In this document: piece by piece, positions 1,101-43,333 of the stretch
Position numbering within the stretch: the stretch's first letter is position 1
Layout of the letters: the number at the start of each line of letters is the position of its first letter
Origin: a virus
Length of the DNA stretch: 43,333 nucleotides
Strand: one strand, 5' to 3'
IMG/VR virus record: IMGVR_UViG_3300022837_000002
Made by a program: the position numbers and the translations under genes
The notes under the pieces: generated by a model
Database searches by the model: none
Told to the model about the DNA's origin: nothing
The model's input: only the letters and a program-made list of their open reading frames with translations

Positions 1101-1119
1101 AAAACTACATATCGTAGTT
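1101..1119 (+). promoter_or_regulatory. AAAACTAC-N4-YGTWGTT motif, copy 1 (aaaactac atat cgtagtt)
   Basis: Perfect palindrome arms. One of 5-6 intergenic copies (3499, 8914, 24796 minus, 40332, and a partial one at 7093 minus). Confidence 0.5.
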
Positions 1120-1189
1120 TTTTTCCTACTTTACTACCTCTTACTATCAGACTAACCTAGCATAAAGGTTATGATCCAATGAACTACAG

Positions 1190-2747: not shown

Positions 2748-2946
2748 AAAACCCCTCCCATTTATCCCAACTCAACTTTACACACACACGGGAGACCATT
2801 TTTTTTTACAAAAAATTTTTTTACCCATACCCAATTATAACACAATCATAACCCCATATAAAACCAAACCCCTCTCAAACCATTTAAAGCCACATCTATA
2901 CAACAGCTAATACAACCCAAAACCCCAAATTAACACTACTCCGTGT

Positions 2947-2986
2947 GCGGGTGATACGCACTAACACCCGTCCCCTCTTTTTTCGG
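2947..2986 (+). terminator. Possible intrinsic terminator downstream of terL
   Basis: Stem cgggtg 2948-2953 pairs with cacccg 2965-2970, followed by tcccctctttttt. The T tract is interrupted and the loop is 11 nt. Confidence 0.4.
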
Positions 2987-3495
2987 CTTACCTACCACCT
3001 TTACCCGTTGAAAATTACGTTGAACTAATCAAAGCGAACAGTACTATACGCTACTAAATGCCGATACAGTAGAATAAAAGACTTTTTAGCGTAGTAACGA
3101 ATAAACAAAAGTGCCCCTATTCAATTTAAACGATATTATACTATACTAGTTTACATAATCATATTTATACGACTATTAACCACAGTAAGCAAAAAGCGAA
3201 TAAGAATACAAGCCAGTATATACAGCATATAGCGCTAAATATGCGCATTAAAGCACTTTAAAGCGTCTTTTTACTGCTCTTATGTCCGCCCAAAATTAAT
3301 GAAGTAGAAGACACAAAGCACTCTTACAAATAACTAATGAATAACACACCTTTAAAAGGTAGTAAATGAATAATGGTGCTGATCTTTTTTTTTTACTTGT
3401 AGTAGTTAGTTAGTGTTATGTATGTAAGAGATGTTGTAAGAAACAACCGCCAGCGCTTGTTAAAGATATGTTTTTATATTTTTTATTGTAAAGAC

Positions 3496-3524
3496 TTGAC
3501 AACTACAAATAGTTGTTTTATATT
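3496..3524 (+). promoter_or_regulatory. Near-consensus sigma70 promoter TTGACA-N17-TATATT for the ArdC/RadC operon. Its spacer contains motif copy acaactac aaat agttgtt (3499-3517).
   Basis: -35 at 3496-3501, exactly 17 nt of spacer, -10 at 3519-3524, about 75 nt upstream of the ATG at 3599. Confidence 0.6.
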
Positions 3525-3574
3525 GCTCCTAGTTGCTTAAATAAAGCAGCCCAAAAAACACCAAACAAGGCTTA

Positions 3575-3597
3575 ACCAGCCAAAAACAAGAGCTAAA
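3575..3597 (+). promoter_or_regulatory. 23-nt leader repeat accagccaaaaacaagagctaaa, copy 1, immediately 5' of the ArdC start
   Basis: Identical 23-mer at 4578-4600. The flanking about 55 nt are also similar. Confidence 0.6.
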
Positions 3598-3598
3598 C

Positions 3599-4525
3599 AT
3601 GAAAAAATCTAACTACATAAAAAAAGACTATTACCAAACTATTACAGACAAGCTTATAAATGCAATCGAAAAAGCGGACGCTAATAATTGGGTAATGCCA
3701 TGGACGGGCGCAACGGGAAACCCGACGCGTTCAACGGGTGAATACTACAGGGGAGTAAATCATTTAGTACTAATGATCGAAGCAGAAGAAAAAGGTTTCT
3801 CTAATCCTAATTGGTTCACATTCAAGCAAGCAAAAGATTTAGGAGCGCAAGTAAAGAAAGGGGAAAAAGGTTCTCCAGTAGTGTATTATAAGTCTTTGAA
3901 AATTGACAGCGACGGAAAACCCGGGACAGTTGATGCGAAAGGCAACTATGTAAATAAAGAAGGTCAGTATACTATTCCACTATTAAAGGGATATACAGTA
4001 TTTAACGCAGATCAAATAGAAAATCTACCTGCGAAGTATGAAGTAAAGCCACCAGTTTTGAACGAAATTGAGCGAGACGCAAAAGCTGAAAAGCTAATAA
4101 GCGCAACGGGTGCAAAGATAACCCACAAAGTAGGAAGCAGAGCATACTACTCACCGAGCGAAGACTGTATAACCTTACCGATGGCAGAGCAGTTCAAGAC
4201 AAAAGAAGGCTATTATAGCACGTTGTTTCATGAGTTAATCCATTGGACTAAAGGCGACGAAAGAACGGGTAGAACAAAAAAATCAGGTGCTCAGGCGTAC
4301 GCATTTGAAGAGCTAGTAGCCGAAATAGGAACGTCTTTTATATGTAATAAACTGCAAATAAGCAGTAAAGAGCAATTAAAGCAAAATGCAAGCTATTTAA
4401 AATCTTGGTTACAACATCTTAAGAACGATAATAAATTCATTTTTAAAGCAGCAGCAGCAGCATCAGCAGCAGCCGAATTTATTTACAGCACAGAAATATC
4501 TATAAAAGAAACTGTAGCAGCCTAA
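3599..4525 (+). CDS. ardC: ArdC-like antirestriction protein: ArdC-N ssDNA-binding domain plus a zincin metallopeptidase (MPTase-PolyVal type)
   Basis: Motifs MPWTGATGNPTRSTGEYYRGVNHLVL and WFTFKQAKDLGAQVKKGEKG are ArdC-N-like. Motifs FHELIHWT (HExxH) and EELVAEIG are protease-like. Confidence 0.8.
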   Translation: MKKSNYIKKDYYQTITDKLINAIEKADANNWVMPWTGATGNPTRSTGEYYRGVNHLVLMIEAEEKGFSNPNWFTFKQAKDLGAQVKKGEKGSPVVYYKSLKIDSDGKPGTVDAKGNYVNKEGQYTIPLLKGYTVFNADQIENLPAKYEVKPPVLNEIERDAKAEKLISATGAKITHKVGSRAYYSPSEDCITLPMAEQFKTKEGYYSTLFHELIHWTKGDERTGRTKKSGAQAYAFEELVAEIGTSFICNKLQISSKEQLKQNASYLKSWLQHLKNDNKFIFKAAAAASAAAEFIYSTEISIKETVAA

Positions 4526-5633: not shown

Positions 5634-5740
5634 ATGCTGACGTTTAGTATATGGTGAGTAGCCAACCACTAACTGAGCTACGAAGAACAAATGTTTAATC
5701 GGCTATTCACTATATTTTGTGTTAGCATTAGTTAATTATT

Positions 5741-7059: not shown

Positions 7060-7110
7060 TTTTCCCTTAGTCTAAACGTGTTTTTATTACTATATGTAGT
7101 TGAATTATAA

Positions 7111-7353
7111 GTACCCCTTAAGTACCCATGTACCCCTTAAGTACCCCATTTAACGATTATAACGCAATTCTTTAACAACAAGGTGTTAGTTATTTTTTTA
7201 ATAAAGTCTAAAAAATGATGGTAGAGCCTATTTTTAGGCTAAATTACAGAATAATAGGAAAATACTGTTTGTTTGTATTTCTTAAGTCTAACGTATTGCA
7301 ATGCAATACTTTGTAAGTTTTATAAATAATACAAGTACCCCAATAGTACCCCC
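7111..7353 (+). repeat. attP-like field. Six same-orientation GTACCC(C) repeats in two clusters flank about 190 bp that contain the palindrome gtattgca-a-tgcaatac (7293-7309).
   Basis: Repeat starts at 7111, 7122, 7130 and 7141, then 7335 and 7346. The field abuts the 3' end of the integrase gene. Confidence 0.55.
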
Positions 7354-7363
7354 GATGTTGTTT

Positions 7364-8521
7364 TTACCCAATTCTGCTGACAACATCTTGTAATCTTGTT
7401 GCCAACACTTTGGCGTAAACTTCTGTTTGAGCTATGGATTCATGACCCATAAATTCAGATAATTCTTTTAACGGCATACCCGCATTAACCCAATGCGTAG
7501 CGCCCCCATGTCTAAGCACATGAAGACCCATTCTACCGCTCATTATTGATAAATCTGTAAGAGCTTCTTTTAATTTGTCGTGAAGTCTAGCATACTTTAA
7601 TGAATTATTTAATACACCCGTATGTGAATATTTTAAAAGAAGCTCAAGGGCAGGCTTTGCACTTTTTGAAATGGGAACAACTCGTACTTTCATGCCTTTG
7701 CCATAGAGTTTAATGGTATTTGATGTAAAATCAATATGAGACGCTTTAAGTCTTTTAAATTCAATATATCTCATACACTGAAAGAACATAAGCTCGTATA
7801 TAGCGTTTAAAATAGACCCGTAGGTCTCTCTATTGTACGGCAAGCTGTCCACGTAATAAAAATAAGTAGGTTCGGCCAGTCTCTTGTTTATGTAGCTAAA
7901 AACTTGTTGCAGTTGAGAGTATGTTAAATATTTGATTAAGCGTGTCTGATTTTCGCTATAACGCTTATTCATTTTATAATTTGGCTTAATCAACAACTGC
8001 AATTTATGTGCTGTTCTGTGTTCTATATAAGCTAAAAAACGGCTAATAAGAGATTTATACGCCGCGCAATAGCTCCTACTTTTACCAGTAGTGTAGTCTT
8101 CTAAAAGAGTGGTCCATAAATTATCATCTGTCGCTCTAGCGCTAAACTCTGATAAATTATTGTCTCTAACAAAAGCTTTTAATTTGTTTGAGTAACCTAA
8201 ATAGGTTAATTGCATTACTTGATCTCGCATTTCTGCTAAATAATCATTTAGCAAACTTATAATAGTTAAACCATCTTCATGCTTAACATACTCAGCGCCT
8301 TTAGAACCCGGATTGTCTGCAAAATCTCTCCAGGACTGTTTGGTGAGCTTCCAGGCTCCGCTATCGTAAGCTTTATTCATATCATGCTCTAGTTGTAATA
8401 GCGCACGTTTACTATATAAATTAACCTCAACGCTATGCTTTCTTTGGCGCCCCATGCGCTTAAACTTAATTTCGTAGCGATTACCGTTTTTTTTAAACAG
8501 AGCCATCCTTATCACCATCAA
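7364..8521 (-). CDS. int: tyrosine recombinase / phage integrase
   Basis: C-terminal catalytic pattern HVLRHGGATHW...GHESIAQTEVYAKV (HxxR...H...Y). The start may instead be at 8518 or 8506. Confidence 0.9.
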   Translation of the reverse strand: MMVIRMALFKKNGNRYEIKFKRMGRQRKHSVEVNLYSKRALLQLEHDMNKAYDSGAWKLTKQSWRDFADNPGSKGAEYVKHEDGLTIISLLNDYLAEMRDQVMQLTYLGYSNKLKAFVRDNNLSEFSARATDDNLWTTLLEDYTTGKSRSYCAAYKSLISRFLAYIEHRTAHKLQLLIKPNYKMNKRYSENQTRLIKYLTYSQLQQVFSYINKRLAEPTYFYYVDSLPYNRETYGSILNAIYELMFFQCMRYIEFKRLKASHIDFTSNTIKLYGKGMKVRVVPISKSAKPALELLLKYSHTGVLNNSLKYARLHDKLKEALTDLSIMSGRMGLHVLRHGGATHWVNAGMPLKELSEFMGHESIAQTEVYAKVLATRLQDVVSRIG

Positions 8522-8801
8522 TTTTTTTTAGCTTTGGTCTAGCTAGACCGTGAAGCAATTCGTTTAAGTTTATAAATCTATATTCAGGTCGATTCAAAAC
8601 CAATATTATTCTATTCCATCCTGTAGCAGTTATTTGATTACGAAGCTTATACATGGTTATCTGATTGCGATTTTCAAAACCCAAAACATCCGCAAGCTCT
8701 ACATCCCGATCTATACCAAATATTGACCTAAGTCGTCTAAGAAGTTCATGCACATCAACTTCAAAATCATCAAAAAACTCATTTTGAGCCTTGTTTTTCA
8801 T
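8493..8801 (-). CDS. XRE/Cro-CI-type HTH regulator (candidate lysogeny repressor)
   Basis: HTH-like ELADVLGFENRNQITMYKLRNQITATGW. First gene of the leftward unit, which diverges from the early rightward genes and overlaps int. Confidence 0.5.
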   Translation of the reverse strand: MKNKAQNEFFDDFEVDVHELLRRLRSIFGIDRDVELADVLGFENRNQITMYKLRNQITATGWNRIILVLNRPEYRFINLNELLHGLARPKLKKIDGDKDGSV

Positions 8802-8990
8802 TAGCCGTCCTAAAGATTTGTTTATTTATTGTTGTTTTTAACAACACATAATATAAAGTAAAAAACAAATCTTTACCATCAAAACAGCATAAAACAATTT
8901 TTCGCTAAAGAAAAAAACTACTTAGTGTTGTTATTTCTATTTAATGTCTTTACATTAGATTTTTGAAAATATCAATACATCCCTAAATAA
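8802..8990. promoter_or_regulatory. Divergent switch region with nested inverted repeats and motif copy aaaactac ttag tgttgtt (8914-8932)
   Basis: aaagatttgttt 8812-8823 pairs with aaacaaatcttt 8863-8874 (12 of 12). An inner hairpin gttgtt-ttt-aacaac lies at 8831-8845. Confidence 0.5.
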
Positions 8991-9374
8991 ATGTCTCTAT
9001 CCAAATTAATGAAGCAAAGTACGGGCAATAATGCTCGCTTTGTTAAAATGTTCGGAAAAGCCAAGCTAATCCGTTTCATAGCACGTAAATCATTAGCTCA
9101 ATTCAAGCTTCATTTACCATTTGTTGAAAACCCGTATCAATGGCTTAGCAACCGAATTGATATAAAAAAATTCATACAAAAATATGAAGCAGAATTTTCT
9201 GAATTACCTTTGCAGGAGTTTAAAAAAAACGAACTACTTAGCTTACTGGATGCCTTTTTGCATTGTGCCGTTGATGAAATGATAGAGGCAGCACTTGATG
9301 GTAAACCTGAACTAGGTTTAAAAAAAAAGGAGGGCGACCAAGCCCTCCTAACACCAAACCAAAAACAGAGCTAA
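8991..9374 (+). CDS. hypothetical protein (127 aa), first rightward early gene
   Basis: ORF only. No motif recognised. Confidence 0.5.
   Translation: MSLSKLMKQSTGNNARFVKMFGKAKLIRFIARKSLAQFKLHLPFVENPYQWLSNRIDIKKFIQKYEAEFSELPLQEFKKNELLSLLDAFLHCAVDEMIEAALDGKPELGLKKKEGDQALLTPNQKQS
9320..9349 (-). terminator. Textbook intrinsic terminator on the minus strand, antisense inside the 3' end of CDS 8991..9374
   Basis: Stem aggagggc 9328-9335 pairs with gccctcct 9342-9349 (8 of 8, GC-rich) with a 6-nt loop. The minus strand then reads 8 Ts, the complement of 9320-9327. Confidence 0.55.
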
Positions 9375-9405: not shown

Positions 9406-9801
9406 ATGGAATCAGAACTTCTACAACGAATTGAAACGAAGCTGGATAAGCTCCTAGAAATCACAAAAGCGAACGAGCTTACCGATAAAACACCGCTTTT
9501 CAGTAATTACTTGAAGGCTATTGGAACAACTAAAGAGCAAGTGAATCACCCCGAAGCAAAGGGTATGCCTAATATGATGACTTTAAGCCTAGCGGCTGAG
9601 TTTCTTTATGAGCGGCACGGCAAAATAATGAGCAGCGCCAAGTGGATGGCAAAAATTCGTTACGCTACAAGAACGGGTAAAATTGTAAGCTACAATGAAG
9701 AAGGGCAAGTAAAAAAAGACAAGAGGGGAACAAGATCGCTCTTAAAAACATCAGACATTTTGAAATGGCTTAAAAAAAGCCTGCCTGAAATCAACGCTTG
9801 A
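9406..9801 (+). CDS. hypothetical protein, possibly an excisionase/AlpA-like (HTH_17-type) DNA-binding protein
   Basis: Pattern MTLSLAAEFLYERHG...IVSYNEEG...LLKTSDILKWLKK resembles MerR-superfamily excisionase helices. Confidence 0.35.
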   Translation: MESELLQRIETKLDKLLEITKANELTDKTPLFSNYLKAIGTTKEQVNHPEAKGMPNMMTLSLAAEFLYERHGKIMSSAKWMAKIRYATRTGKIVSYNEEGQVKKDKRGTRSLLKTSDILKWLKKSLPEINA

Positions 9802-10755: not shown

Positions 10756-11853
10756 ATGAAAGAAACAACAGAAGAAACAACACTCCAAAAAGTTGAAGAA
10801 AACTTAGTAGACGCTGAAAATATAGAGGTACTTCCTTCTATTGAAGAAGCGTTAGCCATAATTAAAGAACCTATCACAGACAAAGTTAAAACAGCGATAG
10901 CACAAGCGCTCAAAACTGAGCTTGTAGAGCTGCAAACAGTCGCGGGGTACAACAAGGCTGACAAAACAGTTAAGAGCTTAGTAAAGCTACTTTCGGGGAT
11001 GGAAAAAGAGCGAAAAAGATTAGTTGATCCTGCTGTCAAGTATCAACGAAGTATCAACGCCGAAGTTAAAACAATCAAAGAACAGTTAGAAAATGCTAGA
11101 GATCATTTAAAAAGCCATTTAAAGCTTATTGATGATGAAAAAGCACGAATTGAACTAGAATTAAAAAAAGAACGCGTATCGTTACTAACAAGTGCGGGAT
11201 TTTCATTCGATGGCTTTCATTATGCAGCAGGCGAAACTATGCTTTCAGCCGAGACCATTACTTCACTTACAGAAGAAGAGTTTAAAGCTGAATATGAGAA
11301 TGGTAAAGTCTTCATTGCAGATTTAGAAGCTAAAAAACAAGCTGAAATAGATGAACGCTTAGCTGAACAAGAAAAACTAGATAAGCAAAAAGCTGAATTA
11401 GATGCTCAATTAGCAAGTTTAGAAAAAGACAAAGAAGAATTAAGGCAATTAAGAGCAGAAAAAGAAAATAGGCTAAAAAAAGAAGGTCCAGGTTTAGAAT
11501 CAATTTCAAGTGGAGTAGATTTATCGAATGACTTTCCTAGCAGCAATGAGCCTATATTCAAACAACCAGTGCCAAGTCAAAATATCGAGCAAGCTAATCA
11601 ATCTGTCATAACTCAAGCTGGTAACTTAAAACCGATGTATGAGCCAGAGACAGAGACAGAGCAATACCCAGATGTAACAGAAGATCAAAATATTAATGAT
11701 GTGAGCGAAATCGAGGATCATTTTCAACAAGGTTTCATTAATTGCAAACAATTAATACTTAAAGAATTTAATTCAGGTATTAAAAAGAACCGCACAGAGT
11801 GGGTAATTTTCATTAGCCATCTTAAACCATCAGTGGCATTTAAAAATGGGTAA
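10756..11853 (+). CDS. coiled-coil protein of unknown function (365 aa)
   Basis: Long K/E-rich heptad-like stretches with an acidic C-terminal half. Lies in the recombination module. Confidence 0.5.
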   Translation: MKETTEETTLQKVEENLVDAENIEVLPSIEEALAIIKEPITDKVKTAIAQALKTELVELQTVAGYNKADKTVKSLVKLLSGMEKERKRLVDPAVKYQRSINAEVKTIKEQLENARDHLKSHLKLIDDEKARIELELKKERVSLLTSAGFSFDGFHYAAGETMLSAETITSLTEEEFKAEYENGKVFIADLEAKKQAEIDERLAEQEKLDKQKAELDAQLASLEKDKEELRQLRAEKENRLKKEGPGLESISSGVDLSNDFPSSNEPIFKQPVPSQNIEQANQSVITQAGNLKPMYEPETETEQYPDVTEDQNINDVSEIEDHFQQGFINCKQLILKEFNSGIKKNRTEWVIFISHLKPSVAFKNG

Positions 11854-12085
11854 TAAAAAAAAGAGTAATCAAAAAGAAGAGCTACTAGCTTATTTGAAAG
11901 AAAACAAAAGTATAACCTACTTTGAAAGTTTTTCTGAGATTGGTATTGCCCGTCTTGCCGCTAGAATTTCGGACTTAAGAGCCGAAGGGCATAACATAGA
12001 AACAATAATGAAAAAAGTTATTTCAAGCCAAACAGGACGTGAACATACTGTAGCTGTTTACTACTACAATGAGGCTAAAGAGTAA
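11846..12085 (+). CDS. small winged-helix/HTH DNA-binding protein
   Basis: GIARLAARISDLRAEGHNIET resembles the RLxxRIxDLRxxGxxI pattern of phage HTH proteins. Confidence 0.4.
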   Translation: MGNKKKSNQKEELLAYLKENKSITYFESFSEIGIARLAARISDLRAEGHNIETIMKKVISSQTGREHTVAVYYYNEAKE

Positions 12086-15990: not shown

Positions 15991-16058
15991 AACCCTAGAT
16001 AAACGTGTACTAATACAGTACATTTTCAATAAACCACATTATGTTGTCTTAAGCAACA

Positions 16059-19000
16059 TTAATCTAAGCTTATTTCAACTTTACTTTGATTAACCCCGCC
16101 AAGAGCTACACGCTGTTTAGCTTGCTCGTTAGCTAGTCTTGAAATTTGCCTAACACGCTTATCAATCTGTTCATTAGTCATAGTAATTAAATTAGGCTTA
16201 TCAAGTATTATATCTCTGCGTATCTGTCTTCCTGAGTAGTAAATAAAATTGTAATATTGGTTCTCATTCATTACTCGACTCTGCCCTATCAAATCAATGT
16301 AAGACACGCTATTCGGATTAGGCGTAGGAATAAATAGGTTCTTATTTGTTAGAAAGCTAAATACAGGATGCTCTTTTTGAGTGCTGTAAAACCTGCCTAG
16401 CAAACCTTGAGCAGCGCTCCAATCATTGCGTATTGGCTCACCTAAGCGATTTATAACTGGATGCCTATCATTCACCGCAAAGGCTGATGGCGTAGATGCT
16501 GCTATCAATTCCTGAACCGTATCTTTAGTGTAAATTTTTGGGTCAAATATCTGGTTAACACTTCTAAATAAACTAGGCGTTGCTAATCGAACAGGCGTTG
16601 CTAATAGGTCTTTGACAATATTAACTTTTGAAGCGCCCTCTCTACTCACATTTTCTACCAACCTTGCAGCTCCACTAAGAAACGACATATTTAGCATAGT
16701 CTGAGGTATAAGTTTAAAAGCATAAAACAGTCTTGATTGCAAATCTTTATCATCAAGTTCTTTATAACGAACGGCATCTGAGTAATTACCTACAAGTGCT
16801 AAAAGTAAACCAAGTGGACTATCTTTATAGCTAAAATAAGTTTTCCCCATTTGGACAGTATATTCTTTCCAACCCGTTTCACCTAATTGTCTAGCTTTTT
16901 TATAATCAATAGGCCCTCTACCATGTATTCTAAACGATGGCTCATTATCTTCTGGATCATCAGTAAAAGCTATAGCAGCTAACAAAGAGAAAGCAATGGT
17001 TCCTGCCATGTTTTTCATTAAGATAATCTTATGCGCATCATCTAATGAATCATTAACATTGCGACGCTCAACATCGTTTTTAGCGTTCATATAGCGCCAT
17101 AAACCAATAACAGGAACATAATTAACTTGTTCGTTTAACACGTTTGCTACAATCGTAGTGAAAGGAATTGCTCCCAACCTAATTACCGTTGACGCAACTC
17201 TACTATTGGTTTTTTTATCAATTAAATTAAACCCCTGATTTATTCCCAATGCAATAGAACCCATCACCCCCTCTGGTGTTTGATTATATGTTGATGTTAA
17301 ACCAAATTTTACCGCATCTTCTTGCAAACTTTGATCTCTATTACGCTCTATCTGGTCATGCACAAAATGTTTGTAATCCCTAGTACCAGGTTCTAAACCT
17401 GCATTTGACGCTTCAATGTTAGCCTGCTCTCGGAAAGGTTCACCTAAAAGCTCTGAAAACAGTTTTTGCGCATCATCCCCTCGTAAACCTGATTTTTGAA
17501 CGGTTTTAGTAGCGGTGTAGTAAAAACGCATTTCCTCAGCACCTTTAAAAAACAACATATCCGAAGCGGCCATTACCCTACGAGTATATTTAAAGAAAGA
17601 AAGGGCAAATTGCAGTTTACTATCGGAGGTAGCTAACATTTCTAAAGTATCGCCACCCATTTGATCAATCTTCTGTAAACGAGTACCCGTTACAACACCT
17701 GTTTTTAGCACCTTTTCCGCTTCTGGAATACCTTTAATAAACCCTTTAAGAAGGCCTATCATTGGCGTATAACCCGATTTATTAAAAGGATTCATAGCCC
17801 ATAATGAGAAACCATTCAATAAAACATTAGCAAACGTAGAGCCAAAATTTACCACTTGCGTAGGAATACCACTAAGCATATTACTATAGGCAACACTTGT
17901 AGAAATATCCCACCAGCTTATCCCTTTTTGTTGAGCTATAAAACTCATTAGCTCAACCATTTTTTGATCTTTTGCCGAACTATCTACCATTAAGTTAACT
18001 TCTTTAGCCATTTGATCAATTTTGGCTAATGCTTTAGGGTCTGGCGACATTTCTAAAAATCTAGCTAATGAATCTCGTAAATCTGCCTGAGAAAGTGCGC
18101 CCAACCTAGATAAATCCATTAACTCATTAACAAATTTTGAAGCTCTTGTACCACGACTAGCTTTTTCGCCTTTGGTTTTTTTATCCATTTTTTTTAAAAA
18201 GGCTTCAATCTTCTTTTTTCTGGTATCTATAATTTCTTGCTTAAGTGTGGCGTCCACTCGCTCGGCCATTAACTCAGCTTCATTTGTATTCAAACCACCT
18301 TGCTCTACCAACTTTTTAAGTAGCGCCATACGGTTATTGGTATCTACCCCGTAATGATCGGTAATAAGCTCTTTCATTTTCATATCAAGATCAGTAAGCG
18401 CATCACCCATAGCTTTACGGACCAGCTTAACGCTAACTTCTCTATTGTTAAACCCATCAACGAGCGCTAAAGCCTGCTGCTTAACATCCTGTGATAAACT
18501 TTGGTCTTGTTGAATAGTATCGTAAACAGTATCTAAAGCCTCTTGATAACGGTCTGGGTTACGCACTACATCTAATATCATATCTATAGCAGGCCTATTA
18601 CTTTTTTCATTTTTAGTAGTAGGTAACTTAGATCGTATTTCCTGCATTAAAGCATTGGTAAATTCTTGTAGCGGTATGCTAGATGGAGAAGATCCCGCAA
18701 GTTGTTGCATAACGGATTTAGCTATAGCAACACGATAACGCTGCCAAATCCCATCCCCATCTTTTTTATTGTCTCTGTTTGGCTTGGCGCCTGATTCACT
18801 TAATTTCTTTTTTGCTTGGGCTAATTGTCCTTGCAGCCCTGAAAGTTCAAAGTATATTTTATTTATAACATCGTCTAGCTGTCCTAATATTTGTTTCTTT
18901 TGGTCTATTTCAGCTTTAATCCCTTCAATACCGCTGCCTACAGGTCTGCCTTCAAGTTCTTTAATCTGATCGGTTAACGCCTCGATTTGCTTAGTCAAAA

Positions 19001-22000
19001 GCTCTCTTTGCGCCTGCTGGGTATGTAATTCCGTTTCTAGTTGATTATTCGCATCTAAAAGACCGCCTACGGTCTCACTACTGCCCCTGAGCGCTGATTG
19101 TATTTCTGTAATTTCATCCATAAGGGATTTAATCTGCTGCTCTTTAGCGTCTACAACATCTTTACTAACCTGCGTAATTTCGGCATTGGCTGTAGTTATA
19201 TCACCCTCAAGAAGTGGCATAACTCTATTCGCTTTCTTTTGCATGGCCTTCTTAAAAGTAACAACAAAAGCTCTAGGGTTCAGTTTACTAAATATCTTTA
19301 TAGCATTTAAGGCCCTGCCGTACTCACCATAAATACGAGTTGTTTCGTCTACAAAATCCGCTAATTGATCATATAATTGCGATTGTTCTTGACCTTCTGT
19401 GGCATCTATACGCTCTTGATAGGCTAAAACAATCTGTTGAGCAAGCGTAACCCGTACACTATCAGATATTTGCTGTTCTGGATTCTTAACTGTAGCTACG
19501 GCATTTTCAAAACCGACCTTTGCCATAAATTCCCTAGCCGCAGCCAAAGTAAACTCATGCGGTTGACGACGGTAAAAATTACGCATTTCACGCTCGTATG
19601 CTTCACGAGCTTTGGCATCTGGAAGCAAGGCTTCACTCATTTCCTTGTATGTTTGGTGTTCTCCCAACATACCAGCATCTTCACGCTCTTGAAACGCCTG
19701 CTCGCTACCTACACGACCATCATTAGGCTTTACTCTATCTAATACCTCTGTAGCGTTATTAACATCTTCTTCCGTAATTATACCACCTGATAGAAGCTCG
19801 TCAATAGATCGGCCTGAATCATTATTAGCTATATCATCCATATTATCAATAGATACAAAGTCGTTAGCTTCCTGCATCTGTCTAACATGTGATTCAATCG
19901 TAGCATCATCATCAAATAAATTACTATCGTTTCGCGCCCTAATCTGTTGGTAAATAAGCTTTAAATATGGTTGCACCTCAAAGCCTGTTTGCTCAAGCAT
20001 TTTTTGACTAAAAGCGGAAAAAGTTCTAGCACCCGCTTCAATGTGAAAAGCGCCCATTTTAACCAATCTAAATAACTGAACGGGGTCAATCGGTAAACCG
20101 CCAGATATTTTGTTTAAGTCTCGGTTAAAGTCGGCTTTTGTTCGCTCGTAGTCGGAACGGTCGACGATGCTATTGGTTGCTCCGTAGGCATCGGCTTGCG
20201 GTTCGTCAACTTGGCTATTGCCTTCTTCGCCACTAGTTTCTGCTCCCTGCTGCTTTGCGGATCGTCCAGTATTAATTGCGCCCTGTAAGCTAGATTCAAC
20301 GCTTTTAAAGGTCTGTTCATTGGTTTTTTTAATTTGTTCGGTTTGTTCTTTGCTAAAGCCCGCTTTTTCTAAAGCTGCCTCAGCCTGTTCAGCTTTAAAA
20401 AATAAGTCTTGCTCTTTGTCTTTTTCAAAAACACCTTTCTCTTTTTCTATGAGAATTGCTTCTTTTTGCGCTAACCTAATTTGCTCATCTATACCTGCTT
20501 TAACCTTTTGAATGTAATCATTGGTTATTTCCACCTCGCCAAATCCAACTGAACCATTTATTTGACTACGTTGTGCGTTATTGAGTTTTTTTAATCTTTC
20601 CTCACGCTCAGTCCTTAAGTCGTCTACAACTTTATTAGCCTTAAACAATCGGTTATCATATTGACGCTGCATTTCACTACGTCTTCTTTCTAACGCAAGC
20701 GGTTTATCTTGCTCAAAACCAAAATTAACCTTAGTACCAATAAACTCACTAAAAGCGCCTAGACTTCTAAATTTGTCATTATTTTCAGGTTTCATTAAAA
20801 ACTTAAATAACTGATTTTCATGAGAGGTTGTAAGCTGTGAGTACATTTGTCTAACTCGACCAATCCTTTGGCCAATAGACATCATTAAATCCTTGTTATC
20901 GCCTTCTGCGGTTTCTTGGAAATTGCTTATTTCTTTTAATGTATCACCAGTCGTATCTAAATAAGAGAAATCAATCGCCCTAGAAGCAGCGCCAGTACCC
21001 TCAACTATTTTAGCTTTATCCTTAATAGCTTTTTTAGATTCTCCTTTTTCTCTCATTTCTCGATAAACTTTTGCCCTCTCTGATGGGGATTCCAAATCCC
21101 TACCAGTGTTTGATCTAACTGTAGCAAAATTCCTCGCCTCATCTTGAGTTCCGGTTAAAAAACGAGCAGGAGAAGACTCTTTCCCTAATCTTTTCATTGC
21201 TTCAAAACGATGATGGCCAGCTAAAACATAAATTTCACCATCAATATCTTTCCATAAAACAAGCGGGTCTAAATCCACATTGCTAAAATCATCAACAATC
21301 CTTTGAACCTTTTCTTCCTTTAATTTTTCCCTATTTTGGAAAAGCTTTTCATTTGTTCTCATTCTTTCAACAGGTACTAAAACCGTTGAACGATCTACGG
21401 GAAACATTTCGCCATCAATTTCTACTAAATTTTTGGAATCTTCATTTTCTTCTTTATCCAACTCTGTAGTCAACTCTTGATCTAGTAAAGTTTCTTGCTC
21501 AAGTTGTATCTCAGGACTTAATTCAGCTTCTGTCTGTACCTCATTATCTACCTGTACCTCATTATCTATTGGTATTGGTAGCATTGGTATAGACTCTGTG
21601 AATATCTCAGAAGAAGCAATATCAACCACCGCTTCATCATCTGTTAGCTCTGATATAGGTTCGTTTTCTTGTTCAGTTTGCGTTAAATCATTCAAGGATT
21701 CACTCTCGCCTTGAACATGATCTTCTAACGCCTGTAAACCACTAATAACATCTTGATCCGTTATTTCAGATTGACCGTTACTAATTTTTGCACGGCTTCT
21801 TTTTAATGAAGACACAATTATACCACCTGCGAAACCGATCACTCCACCCGCTCCGCCCGCTTCCATAACACCGTCTAAAAGTTGCCTGGATTCATCATAT
21901 TTTTTTTGTGCTACAAGATTCGTTAAAGATGATTGAAGCGTTTCCTGCATTAATTCCTCTAAACCACCTTGAAAACCATCGGCTAATATCTTAGCTGATT

Positions 22001-22928
22001 TATTCCCACTTAAGCGGTTAATACTATTAGCTATACCAGCAACACCCATTTTAGAAGCCACTTTTTTCATAGCACCGCTAGTCATAGCACCACCTCTAGC
22101 AAGTACTCTATTGGTTGGAATAGCTTCTGTAGAACCAATCATCCAATTATACACTTGCGCCTCAAAAGCATCTTGCTGTGTTGCACCCGATTTTATAGCG
22201 TTAGCGTATTCTTCGCCACCCATTGATGAAGAACCTAAAGCTAAAGCTCCTACTCCACCACCAGCCGCCCCTGCTAAAACAAAAGCGCCAAAAGAACCAA
22301 CGCCTTGAGGTACTACACTCAGCCAAAAACTTTCTTGCAATTCAGGGTTTGTAGGTAAAGCGTTTTCAAGACCCTTACCTATTCTATCCCCTAATTGAAA
22401 AAAATACCTCTCTTCGGGTTTCTGCTTTGAAACATCTACATCCTCGCCACCCGTAGCCTTGCTTAAAAACCGCTGTAAGCCAGCCGATACTAAAGCCGCT
22501 CCGTCAAGACCGTTGACTACACTACCCGCAATGCCAGGCATATTCTTTAAAACCGTTTTAGCTAGACCTGGTTTATCATCACCAGCCAAAATACGTTCAC
22601 CCTTATCGGCCAAGCCCGCTTGATTATAAGCAAGGCTTTGAGTAAAGGTTCTTGCAAACGATTGTATAGTACTGTTTGCAACATTTTTAAAACCGCCTAT
22701 TTCATTAGCATCCTGTTGCTGTTGTTCAGGCTCTGAAAAATACACACTTTGAAAACTAGAAATATCCTCACCCATACCCGTATAGCCCGATTCTTTTAAT
22801 CGGTTGTATAACAAGGTTTGGTTTTTTTCGGTTGAGAACGTGCTTTTAAAGCTCTCGTAATCGCCTAATCCAGTTACCTCATTTATTTGCAACTGTTTAT
22901 GCAATAATTCTAATTTGTCGGTAGACAT
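16059..22928 (-). CDS. giant virion-associated polyvalent protein (2289 aa) with a ParB/Srx-like nuclease domain
   Basis: ParB core LVLWKDIDGEIYVLAGHHRFEAMKRLG is encoded at about 21195-21260. N-terminal glycine-zipper segments (GAFVLAGAAGGGVGALALG, GGAGGVIGFAGGIIV), a long central coiled coil, and a hydrophobic C-terminal region of about 900 aa. It is the last gene of the structural operon. Confidence 0.7.
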   Translation of the reverse strand: MSTDKLELLHKQLQINEVTGLGDYESFKSTFSTEKNQTLLYNRLKESGYTGMGEDISSFQSVYFSEPEQQQQDANEIGGFKNVANSTIQSFARTFTQSLAYNQAGLADKGERILAGDDKPGLAKTVLKNMPGIAGSVVNGLDGAALVSAGLQRFLSKATGGEDVDVSKQKPEERYFFQLGDRIGKGLENALPTNPELQESFWLSVVPQGVGSFGAFVLAGAAGGGVGALALGSSSMGGEEYANAIKSGATQQDAFEAQVYNWMIGSTEAIPTNRVLARGGAMTSGAMKKVASKMGVAGIANSINRLSGNKSAKILADGFQGGLEELMQETLQSSLTNLVAQKKYDESRQLLDGVMEAGGAGGVIGFAGGIIVSSLKRSRAKISNGQSEITDQDVISGLQALEDHVQGESESLNDLTQTEQENEPISELTDDEAVVDIASSEIFTESIPMLPIPIDNEVQVDNEVQTEAELSPEIQLEQETLLDQELTTELDKEENEDSKNLVEIDGEMFPVDRSTVLVPVERMRTNEKLFQNREKLKEEKVQRIVDDFSNVDLDPLVLWKDIDGEIYVLAGHHRFEAMKRLGKESSPARFLTGTQDEARNFATVRSNTGRDLESPSERAKVYREMREKGESKKAIKDKAKIVEGTGAASRAIDFSYLDTTGDTLKEISNFQETAEGDNKDLMMSIGQRIGRVRQMYSQLTTSHENQLFKFLMKPENNDKFRSLGAFSEFIGTKVNFGFEQDKPLALERRRSEMQRQYDNRLFKANKVVDDLRTEREERLKKLNNAQRSQINGSVGFGEVEITNDYIQKVKAGIDEQIRLAQKEAILIEKEKGVFEKDKEQDLFFKAEQAEAALEKAGFSKEQTEQIKKTNEQTFKSVESSLQGAINTGRSAKQQGAETSGEEGNSQVDEPQADAYGATNSIVDRSDYERTKADFNRDLNKISGGLPIDPVQLFRLVKMGAFHIEAGARTFSAFSQKMLEQTGFEVQPYLKLIYQQIRARNDSNLFDDDATIESHVRQMQEANDFVSIDNMDDIANNDSGRSIDELLSGGIITEEDVNNATEVLDRVKPNDGRVGSEQAFQEREDAGMLGEHQTYKEMSEALLPDAKAREAYEREMRNFYRRQPHEFTLAAAREFMAKVGFENAVATVKNPEQQISDSVRVTLAQQIVLAYQERIDATEGQEQSQLYDQLADFVDETTRIYGEYGRALNAIKIFSKLNPRAFVVTFKKAMQKKANRVMPLLEGDITTANAEITQVSKDVVDAKEQQIKSLMDEITEIQSALRGSSETVGGLLDANNQLETELHTQQAQRELLTKQIEALTDQIKELEGRPVGSGIEGIKAEIDQKKQILGQLDDVINKIYFELSGLQGQLAQAKKKLSESGAKPNRDNKKDGDGIWQRYRVAIAKSVMQQLAGSSPSSIPLQEFTNALMQEIRSKLPTTKNEKSNRPAIDMILDVVRNPDRYQEALDTVYDTIQQDQSLSQDVKQQALALVDGFNNREVSVKLVRKAMGDALTDLDMKMKELITDHYGVDTNNRMALLKKLVEQGGLNTNEAELMAERVDATLKQEIIDTRKKKIEAFLKKMDKKTKGEKASRGTRASKFVNELMDLSRLGALSQADLRDSLARFLEMSPDPKALAKIDQMAKEVNLMVDSSAKDQKMVELMSFIAQQKGISWWDISTSVAYSNMLSGIPTQVVNFGSTFANVLLNGFSLWAMNPFNKSGYTPMIGLLKGFIKGIPEAEKVLKTGVVTGTRLQKIDQMGGDTLEMLATSDSKLQFALSFFKYTRRVMAASDMLFFKGAEEMRFYYTATKTVQKSGLRGDDAQKLFSELLGEPFREQANIEASNAGLEPGTRDYKHFVHDQIERNRDQSLQEDAVKFGLTSTYNQTPEGVMGSIALGINQGFNLIDKKTNSRVASTVIRLGAIPFTTIVANVLNEQVNYVPVIGLWRYMNAKNDVERRNVNDSLDDAHKIILMKNMAGTIAFSLLAAIAFTDDPEDNEPSFRIHGRGPIDYKKARQLGETGWKEYTVQMGKTYFSYKDSPLGLLLALVGNYSDAVRYKELDDKDLQSRLFYAFKLIPQTMLNMSFLSGAARLVENVSREGASKVNIVKDLLATPVRLATPSLFRSVNQIFDPKIYTKDTVQELIAASTPSAFAVNDRHPVINRLGEPIRNDWSAAQGLLGRFYSTQKEHPVFSFLTNKNLFIPTPNPNSVSYIDLIGQSRVMNENQYYNFIYYSGRQIRRDIILDKPNLITMTNEQIDKRVRQISRLANEQAKQRVALGGVNQSKVEISLD

Positions 22929-24795: not shown

Positions 24796-24814
24796 AACAA
24801 CAATATGTAGTTTT
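24796..24814 (-). promoter_or_regulatory. AAAACTAC-N4-YGTWGTT motif copy (minus strand reads aaaactac atat tgttgtt, then ATG)
   Basis: Read as the reverse complement of aacaacaatatgtagtttt. Confidence 0.5.
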
Positions 24815-25176: not shown

Positions 25177-26340
25177 TTAAAGTTTGTTCACGTAAGCTGA
25201 AAGCGCCCAAAAATTCTCACCATCGCCAGACGTCGGAATAACTAAAACCTGCGTAGCGTTTAACGGTACGCAATATATTTTCCCATTAGGGGCTAAAACA
25301 CCGCCATAATATTTAGATGTTCCACTAATTGAGCCAAATAATTCTGTGGTATTATCGGTCGGGTCAATTACTAAAATCTGCGTAGCGGTCTCAGGTACAC
25401 AATAAATTTTTCCATTTGGCGCTAAAACGCCACCAATGTATTTAGATGTTCCACTAATTGAGCCAAATAACGCTGTCGTGTTATCGCTCGGGTCAATTAC
25501 TAAAATCTGCGTAGCGTTACGAGGTATACAGTAAATATTCCCATTAGGCGCTAAAACTCCTCCAGAATATTTTGTGAATCCGCTAATTGAGCCAAATAAT
25601 TCTGTGGTATTATCGGTCGGGTCAATTACTAAAACTTGCGTTGCGTTATCAGGTACGCAATAAATTTTTCCATTTGGCGCTAAAACGCCGCCAGAATATT
25701 TTACTGCTCCCGTAATTGAGCCAAATAACGCTGTCGTGTTATCGCTAGGGTCAATTACTAAAATCTGCGTAGCTTCACGAGGTATACAGTAAATCTTCCC
25801 ATTAGGAGCTAAAACTCCTCCTTGGTATTTAATTGCTCCCGTAATTGAGCCAAATAACGATGTCGTGTTATCGCTCGGATCAATCACTAAAACTTGTGTA
25901 CCGCTAAACGGTACGCAATAAATCTTCCCATTTGGCGCTAAAACACCGCCATAATATTTATTTGTTCCACTAATTGAGCCAAATAATTCTGTGGTATTAT
26001 CGGTCGGGTCAATTACTAAAATCTGCGTAGCGTTACGAGGTACACAATAAATCTTTCCATTTGGGGCTAAAACCCCGCCAATATATTTTAGTGAACCGCT
26101 TATTGAGTCAAATAGCTTTGTACCATTCGCATAATCTACACTTGCACTTAAACTTAACCCATCAAGTGGATTAACCCTAGTTTTTTTGCGCTCAAAATTA
26201 GTTTTAAGCGTTGCGCCAGTTACGTAAACCGTCTTATTTGCGTCAACTGTTGCAGTCGAATCATACGCTACTAGTCTATCTGCATCTGCAAAAAAACCCG
26301 TTTTCTGGACTAATAAACCCTCTATCGTTGTATTTGACAT
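25177..26340 (-). CDS. beta-propeller-like repeat protein (7 x 43-aa repeats), candidate receptor-binding or tail-fibre tip protein
   Basis: The unit LFGSISGTxKYxGGVLAPNGKIYCVPxxATQxLVIDPxDNTT repeats from aa 76 to the C-terminus. Confidence 0.6.
   Translation of the reverse strand: MSNTTIEGLLVQKTGFFADADRLVAYDSTATVDANKTVYVTGATLKTNFERKKTRVNPLDGLSLSASVDYANGTKLFDSISGSLKYIGGVLAPNGKIYCVPRNATQILVIDPTDNTTELFGSISGTNKYYGGVLAPNGKIYCVPFSGTQVLVIDPSDNTTSLFGSITGAIKYQGGVLAPNGKIYCIPREATQILVIDPSDNTTALFGSITGAVKYSGGVLAPNGKIYCVPDNATQVLVIDPTDNTTELFGSISGFTKYSGGVLAPNGNIYCIPRNATQILVIDPSDNTTALFGSISGTSKYIGGVLAPNGKIYCVPETATQILVIDPTDNTTELFGSISGTSKYYGGVLAPNGKIYCVPLNATQVLVIPTSGDGENFWALSAYVNKL
25215..26115. repeat. Tandem 129-bp coding repeats (about 7 units)
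   Basis: gagccaaataattctgtggtattatcggtcgggtcaattac recurs at 25331, 25589 and 25976. The offsets, 258 and 387, are multiples of 129. Confidence 0.85.
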
Positions 26341-40301: not shown

Positions 40302-40331
40302 GTTTTATAGAAAATAAAACTATTTCACTTA

Positions 40332-40350
40332 AAAACTACAATGTGTAGTT
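40332..40350 (+). promoter_or_regulatory. AAAACTAC-N4-YGTWGTT motif copy (aaaactac aatg tgtagtt) in the portal/SSB divergent region, followed by tataat at 40351-40356
   Basis: Perfect 8-bp palindrome arms, read directly. Confidence 0.5.
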
Positions 40351-40382
40351 TATAATGTTGACAAAAACTTAAAACAACCATT

Positions 40383-41054
40383 ATGCCAGTAGGAAATTCA
40401 AAAAAGAGAATCTATTACAGCGTTTCTAAAGACACTGCAAAAATAAAGACTAAAAACGGTGATAACGTACTTGAATACGATTATCTGGAAGGACGATTAA
40501 AAAGCGTTCAATACCAACCCGCAGAAAATATAAACGGCACAAAAATAGGTGCAAGATTTGTATTTATTTTTAGCGACGGGCTGCAAGAAGAAGTTTTCCA
40601 AGCAGGAGTAGGAGCTAGCTACATTCATTTTATACTAGGAGCCCTTGATGCTAATGAGGCTATTAAAAATTCCATAAAGCTAAGCCCGTATCTGAGAACG
40701 ATTGTAAACAAAAGTACGAATGAATCGCGTGTAGGCATAGCTATGTCTGTTTGGAACAATAATAAAATGCTTCGCTATGGTGATGACTTCTATAATAGCT
40801 TAGCAGAAATTAAACAGATCAACGTCTCTGGTGAATTACACTTCGATAAAACAGATCGCATCAACCAAATTCGCACAATCGCCGAAAAAGTAAATGCAAA
40901 GTACACTATGGCGTGGTCTCAATCTGAGAAAGGAATCAGTAATCAAACCTCGTCAGTTGATCAAGAGCGTTTTGATGATGATGATGATACAGAGTTCGCT
41001 GTTACAGTAGCTAGTAACGCTTCTACAAATGAAGATGATGATTTGCCATTTTGA
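40383..41054 (+). CDS. SSB-like protein with a canonical acidic C-terminal tip
   Basis: 223 aa ending ...NEDDDLPF. Compare bacterial SSB DDDIPF. The size is similar to T7 gp2.5-type SSBs. The OB fold was not verified. Confidence 0.5.
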   Translation: MPVGNSKKRIYYSVSKDTAKIKTKNGDNVLEYDYLEGRLKSVQYQPAENINGTKIGARFVFIFSDGLQEEVFQAGVGASYIHFILGALDANEAIKNSIKLSPYLRTIVNKSTNESRVGIAMSVWNNNKMLRYGDDFYNSLAEIKQINVSGELHFDKTDRINQIRTIAEKVNAKYTMAWSQSEKGISNQTSSVDQERFDDDDDTEFAVTVASNASTNEDDDLPF

Positions 41055-42110: not shown

Positions 42111-42455
42111 ATGATAGTAAAACGTCAAACTGGAATACCTGCAATAACACATAACGATTTTAAAAAGTATTGCAAATTAAAAGGTAAAACAATGAATAAG
42201 GTTTTTAATGATCTGTTAATATACAACATTGGTAATTACGGGCTAAACTACCATCAAATACTAAGTCCAAACCTAAAAGATTCATTATCTAAATTAAGTA
42301 GGCGAGTACCAAATCACATAGATAAAAAGAATTTTTGCGTTTCAACGAATAAGGTAACTGGCAAATTAATTGACGATTGCCTTAAAGACCGTAAAATTCC
42401 CTTCTCGTATTTGATTAGGGCAATCATCTATACAGAAATAAAAATTTACATTTGA
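42111..42455 (+). CDS. hypothetical protein, possibly with a ribbon-helix-helix N-terminus
   Basis: IPAITHNDFKKYCKLKGKTMNKVFNDLL follows a strand-helix-helix-like pattern. This call is weak. Confidence 0.35.
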   Translation: MIVKRQTGIPAITHNDFKKYCKLKGKTMNKVFNDLLIYNIGNYGLNYHQILSPNLKDSLSKLSRRVPNHIDKKNFCVSTNKVTGKLIDDCLKDRKIPFSYLIRAIIYTEIKIYI

Positions 42456-43021: not shown

Positions 43022-43305
43022 CTAATCAAATGAGAGGCGAAATATACGAAGTGCTTAAACATATAGCATACGACATAAACAACCATCCTGACACGTTAAG
43101 AGTTAAAGTGGATGAAAGCTTCGATCATGGACTTGGTACTGAATACCAACACAGCTATGAGTTGCATCCATGCGGGCAGGAAATGGAACTTGCTCAATAC
43201 GTTGAGCTAGAACTTAAAAAGGTACTGCCTTTAGTCGAATATGATGCTGAATATACATCAGAAGTCTACTGGAGTCTTTCGGCTGAATATCGGGTCGGGC
43301 TATGA
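43018..43305 (+). CDS. hypothetical protein (95 aa)
   Basis: ORF whose 3' end lies inside the terminal repeat. Confidence 0.5.
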   Translation: MTNQMRGEIYEVLKHIAYDINNHPDTLRVKVDESFDHGLGTEYQHSYELHPCGQEMELAQYVELELKKVLPLVEYDAEYTSEVYWSLSAEYRVGL

Positions 43306-43333
43306 TCATGACCACGACATGTGGGATGCGCAA
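43207..43333. repeat. Terminal direct repeat, copy 2 (identical to 1-127)
   Basis: Direct comparison of both ends. Confidence 0.9.

Follow-up and report, generated by a model that had tools for sequence, protein, structure and literature searches.

The phage genome

The stretch of DNA analysed here (the window, 43,333 nucleotides, IMG/VR record IMGVR_UViG_3300022837_000002) is a circularly closed phage genome of ~43.2 kb (~43,205 bp), the two ends of which (1-128 and 43206-43333) are identical, with a G+C content of 38.6%. It encodes a P22-type portal (PF16510), TerL, an ArdC-type anti-restriction protein, a RuvC-like resolvase, a tyrosine integrase, an exonuclease, a DnaB-type helicase, an endolysin and a 2289-aa polyvalent protein (16059-22928) with ParB-like and DarB-like segments. 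A variant contig of 46.6 kb (99.3% identity) carries ~1.7 kb of additional DNA between window positions ~43305 and ~494. Among 50,697 phage records the TerL most similar to that of the window is 27% identical, so that the phage stands without a close cultured relative. The same phage was found again at 99-100% identity in JGI, ENA and Logan assemblies, and it alone was returned when IMG/VR and the JGI metagenomes were queried with terL, ardC and the 102-aa and 114-aa proteins described below. A scan of one genome collection found neither a prophage copy nor a host, and Rfam and tRNA scans of the window gave zero matches.

The gene leaders of the phage are 44% A, a loose Shine-Dalgarno core is present at just 12 of 47 genes, and 38 nt of intergenic DNA (5689-5726) recur at 100% identity in Cellulophaga phage phi18:3, again in intergenic DNA that carries no annotation, which is the sole DNA-level link to a cultured phage. 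Together these sequence features hint at a host within the Flavobacteriia; the host is probably Bacteroidota-like.

Three further features of the genome are recorded here in their own right. Within the 387-aa structural gene at 25177-26340 lies a coding tandem repeat (25237-26114) of 6.8 copies of a 129 bp (43 aa) unit, 79% matching. The 851 bp that follow terL (2748-3598) hold no ORF of at least 50 aa and no Rfam match, and may serve as an origin or for packaging, or encode a non-coding RNA; a 13-mer in this gap, CGTTGAAAATTAC at 3006-3018, occurs twice in the same gap of a relative (L169) and in degenerate form in another (L170). Finally, the 304 bp that separate the lipoprotein-like gene from the integrase gene contain five copies of (A)GTACCCC, at 7109-7147 and 7333-7352, which are probably arm-type sites for the integrase and would mark attP.

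A recurring inverted repeat confined to intergenic DNA

The original prediction was of a 19-nt operator-like motif that recurs at regulatory positions, and this recurrence was borne out. The motif has the consensus AACWAC-N5-GTWGTT, or AAAACTAC-N4-YGTWGTT in its 19-nt form, and is present in five copies, to which two weaker matches and one related element may be added:

1101-1119, plus strand: candidate operator copy 1, AAAACTAC ATAT CGTAGTT, a perfect dyad between A and T runs
3499-3517, plus strand: candidate operator copy 2, ACAACTAC AAAT AGTTGTT, ahead of the ArdC-type anti-restriction operon
8914-8932, plus strand: candidate operator copy 3, AAAACTAC TTAG TGTTGTT, in the divergent region between the HTH and integrase genes (minus) and the early replication operon (plus)
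24796-24814, minus strand: candidate operator copy 4, AAAACTAC ATAT TGTTGTT, abutting the ATG of a 210-aa gene
40332-40350, plus strand: candidate operator copy 5, AAAACTAC AATG TGTAGTT, midway along the 80-90 nt that separate the divergent portal (late) and SSB-like operons
7085-7103, minus strand: weak copy, TCAACTACATATAGTAATA, read as TCAACTAC ATAT AGTAATA, agreeing at 10 of 12 half-site positions
16030-16050, no strand assigned: weak candidate, AACCAC ATTAT GTTGTC, with 2 mismatches, in the gap where the early and structural operons converge
8831-8845, no strand assigned: everted hexamer pair, GTTGTT-TTT-AACAAC, 30 nt upstream of the HTH gene start

The strict pattern AAAACTACNNNNYGTWGTT is found at 1101-1119 (+), 8914-8932 (+), 24796-24814 (-) and 40332-40350 (+), as well as at 1103-1121 (-), which is the reverse complement of the 1101-1119 copy itself, and it has 0 matches in 100 dinucleotide-preserving shuffles. 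The 3499-3517 copy departs from the strict pattern by one flank base and was found by the 17-mer AACTAC-N5-GTAGTT at 1 mismatch. Intergenic DNA makes up 3358 of the 43333 bases (7.7%), and all five strong copies (0.077^5, or ~3e-6, for the five) and both weak ones fall within it. Inverted pairs of AACWAC number five, all of them intergenic and all at a spacing of 5; the remaining spacings between 0 and 11 yielded none. The intergenic location, constant spacing and dyad symmetry originally claimed for the motif are thereby upheld. Its half-site centres are 11 bp apart, or one helical turn, and are separated by an A/T-rich spacer. Few 7-mers are enriched in intergenic DNA, AACTACA and AAACTAC being two of them, and the motif is the sole intergenic-enriched sequence family besides A/T runs, A/C-rich translation leaders and the GTACCCC repeats near the integrase gene. 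Among the matches listed in a scan of IMG/VR for the motif, all were single and scattered.

The two weak intergenic candidates come from a position-weight scan. One of them corresponds to a partial copy that had been placed at about 7093-7111 on the minus strand; the copy is real but its position is 7085-7103, ~8 nt away. It lies 25 nt upstream of a 144-aa lipoprotein-like gene, adjoining the putative attP arm repeats, and may be due to chance, since ~2.5 two-mismatch matches are expected genome-wide. The everted pair at 8831-8845 is the only one in the genome at spacings 0-8 and may be a second type of operator or an autoregulatory site. Palindromes of the form TGTTGT..ACAACA, which resemble it, occur in the relatives L170 and L177.

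Position relative to genes and predicted promoters

The genomic contexts first described for the copies were confirmed. Distances from the five strong copies to the downstream start codon are 122, 81, 58, 0 and 32 nt. The 1101 copy is the one at 122 nt, which stands ahead of terL and precedes a terminator-like hairpin by ~70 nt, and the 8914 copy is 58 nt from the start at 8991 and 112 nt from the start at 8801. At 3499 the motif fills the spacer of TTGACA-17-TATATT (3496-3524), which ranks first among the sigma-70-like matches of the first 10 kb, and at 40332 it fills that of a predicted TTAAAA-16-TATAAT (40329-40356); these promoter matches, at two of the five sites, are based on a consensus that may not be that of the host, and sigma-70-like matches as a class are not above shuffles. 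At 24796 the motif runs right up to the ATG of the 210-aa gene, a start also chosen by an independent gene call, and this gene heads the distal structural operon, the last gene of which encodes the 2289-aa polyvalent protein. In this position the copy could act solely downstream of a promoter. A Bacteroidota sigma-A promoter (-33 TTTG / -7 TAnnTTTG) was considered and set aside, as only 1 of 58 occurrences of TAnnTTTG is intergenic and none is at a motif site.

The AAAACTAC half of the motif, which is the better conserved, is on the upstream side relative to the gene at 3/3 informative sites, a bias that is not significant (p = 0.125). In the portal direction a second element accompanies the motif:

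40308-40317, minus strand: TTATTTTCTA box, 16-17 nt past the candidate operator and 12-16 nt before the portal ATG

This box is invariant in five relatives, in which its distance to the motif is fixed at 16-17 nt, and elsewhere in the window it has no repeats beyond chance. It is probably the core (-10/-7-like) element of a late promoter, in which case the 40332 copy would be centred near -40 of that promoter. The 223-aa protein encoded on the other side of this copy (40383-41054) has no family match and ends in DDDLPF, an acidic tip typical of SSB.

The terminator-like hairpin between the 1101 copy and terL deserves a separate description. It spans 1188-1225, is followed by a run of 7-9 T, has a folding energy of -13.7 kcal/mol and ends ~17 nt short of the terL start codon. 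In three relatives (L169, 1541-1575; L170, 129-165; L171, 1978-2012) the same place is taken by hairpins of -13 to -15 kcal/mol that have other stem sequences, and the conservation of such an element suggests that terL may be subject to read-through or antitermination control.

Conservation of the motif in relatives

Portal homologues 82, 60, 58 and 57% identical to that of the window were retrieved from Logan assemblies, and their contigs (L153, L154, L155 and L156) were compared; the relatives that keep the motif are represented by contigs of 3-8 kb only. At the portal site, identity to the window over the 17 motif positions is 17/17 in L153, 14/17 in L154, 14/17 in L155 and 11/17 in L156, against 62, 42, 32 and 31%, respectively, for the rest of the portal intergenic region. 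L153 thus carries the exact 17-mer upstream of its portal gene, the sites of L154 and L155 read AACTAC ACCAT GTAGTA and AACAAC AAATT GCAGTT, and that of L156 is degenerate. A second position is covered by L169, which comes from the same sample as L153 and has a TerL 84% identical to that of the window. Here AAACTACATATTGTTGTT lies 116 nt upstream of terL, with 15/17 motif positions identical versus 82/156 (53%) in the remaining region, and the genes upstream of terL are unrelated to those in the window. As the motif is kept upstream of both portal and terL while its flanks and neighbouring genes diverge, we consider it, on this comparative evidence, to be under selection. The right half of the L169 site has changed from GTAGTT to GTTGTT, a substitution that stays within the W degeneracy and breaks the dyad pairing, which is the pattern expected of a protein that reads duplex DNA and not of a folded strand.

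With greater divergence the motif was lost from view. TerL relatives at 69% and 64% identity have no copy within the short upstream DNA available, and it is absent from IMG/VR portal relatives at 35% identity, which are not syntenic and have terL upstream of the portal gene. In L172, a 49-kb contig of which 17.5 kb were covered and whose TerL, portal and ArdC are 52, 38 and 36% identical to those of the window, the window motif was not found in the part covered. This part holds a different palindrome, ATTACA-N3-TGTAAT, with 6 matches at up to 2 mismatches versus 0.56 expected, 5 of them intergenic, and its sites include the portal-divergent region and the region upstream of the ArdC operon. 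Equivalent positions occupied by a different sequence are as expected of a regulator and its sites that co-evolve. Among the sites of this palindrome are those at 3722-3792 and 11653-11667, one of which lies flush against the ATG of an excisionase-like HTH ORF missing from the gene calls, much as the 24796 copy abuts a start codon in the window.

A small HTH protein as candidate binder

Two proteins had been named as possible binders of the motif. For the one described as RHH-like (114 aa, 42111-42455) no search gave any support, and no motif lies near its gene. The other has become the leading candidate:

8493-8801, minus strand: 102-aa protein with a modelled CI/Cro-type HTH, whose gene points away from the early operon and overlaps the integrase start

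Searches of Pfam (E <= 0.1), PHROG, the PDB and cultured-phage sequences with this protein returned no significant match, and a word-based homology search found only the protein itself. With a full HMMER search a few small homologues came to light, 54, 40, 39 and 35% identical, two of which resemble PF07022 (Phage_CI_repr) at scores below the 22-bit gathering threshold (P0244, 19.8 bits; P0242, 15.5 bits). An AF2 model from the single sequence was poor (pLDDT 56); on an alignment of five sequences the model is a five-helix HTH with a pLDDT of 82.5, which exceeds 90 for residues 20-70. In the PDB its first match is the CI of phage 186 (2fjr; probability 0.96, E 0.15), with many XRE-type HTH domains next in rank, and its top BFVD matches, weak ones with E from 0.02, are named CI or immunity repressors. 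On the strength of the model we assign the protein a CI/Cro-type HTH fold. The order of HTH gene and integrase gene is kept in L175/L176 and L177, and the homologues P0241 and P0242 likewise adjoin integrases. This model and this immunity-repressor-like synteny speak for the earlier choice of 8493-8801 as an HTH candidate.

The DNA around the homologous genes was also inspected. Upstream of P0241 (the 40% homologue) are three sites that share the centre and left half of the window motif, AAAACTACATCATGTATAT, AAAACTACATAATGTATCA and TTACTACATAGTGTATT; the 7-mer ACTACAT occurs 3 times there versus 0.33 expected, a count reached in 10 of 2000 shuffles. The module of the 39% homologue in L177 has other palindromes upstream, such as GCAACAC-G-GTGTTGC, which fits co-evolution of protein and site and is not proof of it. 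In the window itself, the region 8802-8990 holds one canonical site and the everted hexamer pair and lacks a three-operator cluster, versus three sites in L176. The identification of this specific protein as the binder is accordingly a tentative one, to which we would give slightly less than even odds.

A model of the motif as a probable dispersed operator

We propose a model in which the motif is a dispersed operator, one for each transcription unit, bound by a dimeric HTH protein that is most likely the 102-aa protein acting as lysogeny repressor, and we put the probability of this model at roughly 60%. The broader statement, that the motif is a regulatory operator bound by some phage-encoded factor, can be made with good confidence. 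An operator for a dimeric regulator was also how the motif had originally been read, and that reading gains support from its fixed spacing, its dyad, its exclusively intergenic location, the failure of its copies to form consistent hairpins, its conservation amid diverging flanks and the different palindrome of L172. We infer that a protein binds, which one it is, that binding represses, and where the promoters lie. The operator would be ~17 bp of double-stranded DNA in which the 6-bp half-sites AACWAC and GTWGTT are bound by a dimer of the phage HTH protein. One such operator would head each unit, namely the divergent portal and SSB-like operons, terL, ArdC, the early replication genes, the distal structural genes and, weakly, the lipoprotein gene. 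In a lysogen the 102-aa protein would occupy all sites, leading to the silencing of every lytic and accessory unit. At 3499 and 40332 the bound repressor would occlude core promoter elements, and at 24796 it would form a roadblock between any upstream promoter and the start codon.

The fixed distance of 16-17 nt between the motif and the TTATTTTCTA box would equally suit an activator, and it is here that the main rival to our model arises. A different regulator of the phage could bind the sites as a temporal switch, shutting off early and accessory units (ArdC, SSB) from within their promoter spacers and activating late genes from near -40 of the portal promoter. The spacing to an invariant box in five relatives, which would place the centre of the motif at about -40 as for a class-II activator, is consistent with this, as is the presence of sites before both early-type and late-type units. 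In lambdoid switches CI-type and Cro-type proteins often use the same operators. The candidates for the switch are a Cro/Cox-like protein of 127 aa (8991-9374), one of 131 aa (9406-9801), an HTH_39 winged-helix protein (11846-12085) and the 114-aa protein at 42111-42455. The HTH_39 protein has a significant Pfam match (E 3.6e-16) and a 44% homologue in L172, whereas the 127-, 131- and 114-aa proteins show no evidence of a DNA-binding domain. Furthermore, no motif adjoins the 42111 gene, L154 keeps the motif and has no detected homologue of the 114-aa protein among the five genes beside its portal, and the position of the portal promoter is itself a prediction. On balance we regard a temporal switch of this kind as unlikely, and as clearly the strongest of the alternatives.

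A host transcription factor, either a global or an SOS-type repressor, might instead have been recruited to couple all units to the physiology of the host. The same site is indeed found in phages with different upstream genes (the window and L169), and the higher-GC L172, probably a phage of another host, has another palindrome. The HTH-integrase modules of L176 and L177 come with differing variants of the palindrome, however, which is more typical of phage immunity specificities, the motif matches no known host regulator motif, and the one genome collection scanned held no prophage copy; we consider a host factor improbable.

Action through nucleic-acid structure or as a promoter element, be it in the form of weak terminators that work in both directions, of RNA hairpins covering start codons or of a site for an alternative sigma factor, is the least probable explanation, to which we give hardly any weight: copies 1101, 3499 and 40332 do fold at -6.4 to -7.2 kcal/mol, a T run follows 1101, the 24796 copy abuts an ATG and the AAAACTAC half is upstream of the downstream gene wherever orientation can be judged, but that orientation is informative at 3 sites only (p = 0.125), three of the five copies pair AACTAC with GTTGTT and so have a central T:T mismatch, copies 8914, 24796 and 7085 (-2.9, -0.9 and -0.6 kcal/mol) fold no better than shuffles, the changes in relatives do not preserve pairing, distances to start codons vary from 0 to 122 nt, Rfam gave zero matches, and no RNA polymerase or sigma-factor gene was detected among those of the phage. 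A hairpin or intrinsic terminator was rejected on the same mismatched stems, shuffle-level folds and pairing-breaking changes. We also rejected the idea that the 2289-aa protein is a virion RNA polymerase with hairpin promoters, as it matches ParB-like and DarB-like polyvalent families and the motif forms no consistent hairpin.

The repressor model can be carried one step further. A CI-like protein of only ~100 aa might run the whole genome of a phage of a Bacteroidota-type host through exactly one dyad per unit, combining occlusion in promoter spacers, a roadblock at a start codon that would resemble a mycobacteriophage stoperator in function and differ from it in its symmetric site, and possible late activation from about -40, with immunity specificities that diversify among relatives (AACTAC, TACAT, AACAC, ATTACA). 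We offer this extension as speculation, with a chance of being right somewhat below even that of the temporal switch.

Comparison with known systems

To our knowledge, transcriptional control is little characterised in temperate phages of Bacteroidota-like marine hosts. For a phage without a cultured relative the present analysis provides a testable regulon map of five to seven sites with a named candidate repressor, and such a map would open the promoters, the immunity groups and the lysis-lysogeny switch of this lineage to study; the operator and repressor pair could also double as a regulatory part. In mechanistic terms, a known theme, that of repressor sites dispersed over the genome, would be extended to a new phage group, a new mechanism not being established.

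As in the CI-Cro systems of lambdoid phages, 434 and 186, the site in the window measures ~17 bp, its outer half-sites being conserved and set one helical turn apart, with a variable centre rich in A/T. A site likewise lies where a small HTH gene and the early operon diverge, and the fold predicted for the candidate is of the CI/Cro type. At two of the five sites the motif may also overlap -35/-10 elements, as predicted from consensus matches. The window differs in having a single operator per region, not clusters of three, and in that sites also stand ahead of accessory operons, terL and the late structural genes. With only 102 aa, the candidate has no separate C-terminal domain for oligomerisation or RecA cleavage, and its relation to PF07022 is below threshold.

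The P2/186 lysogeny module, in which the repressor gene is co-oriented with int and faces away from the early operon, is matched by the order of integrase gene, small repressor-like HTH gene and divergent early operon in the window. P2 C, at ~100 aa, is of comparable size to the candidate; it binds direct repeats, in contrast to the inverted repeat of the window. Streptomyces phage phiC31 has a 17-bp inverted repeat at many intergenic positions that is bound by the phage repressor. The window likewise presents a 17-bp inverted repeat across intergenic positions of a temperate phage genome, with binding predicted in our case, and differs from phiC31 in host phylum, repressor family and site sequence.

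The operator and stoperators of cluster A mycobacteriophages (L5, Bxb1, TipsytheTRex) are repressor sites found genome-wide in promoters and short intergenic gaps (PMC9283540, PMC6550527). Stoperators are asymmetric 13-mers, present at more than 20 per genome, that act in an orientation-dependent manner and are bound by a monomer with two DNA-binding domains (PMC9283540), whereas the window site is a dyad present in 5-7 copies and the candidate binder has a single HTH domain. An orientation bias with transcription may be a further likeness, although the 3/3 informative sites of the window fall short of significance. As with stoperators, one recognition sequence is dispersed over the whole genome, and the copy at 24796 stands at a gene start, where it may similarly serve as a roadblock to transcription.
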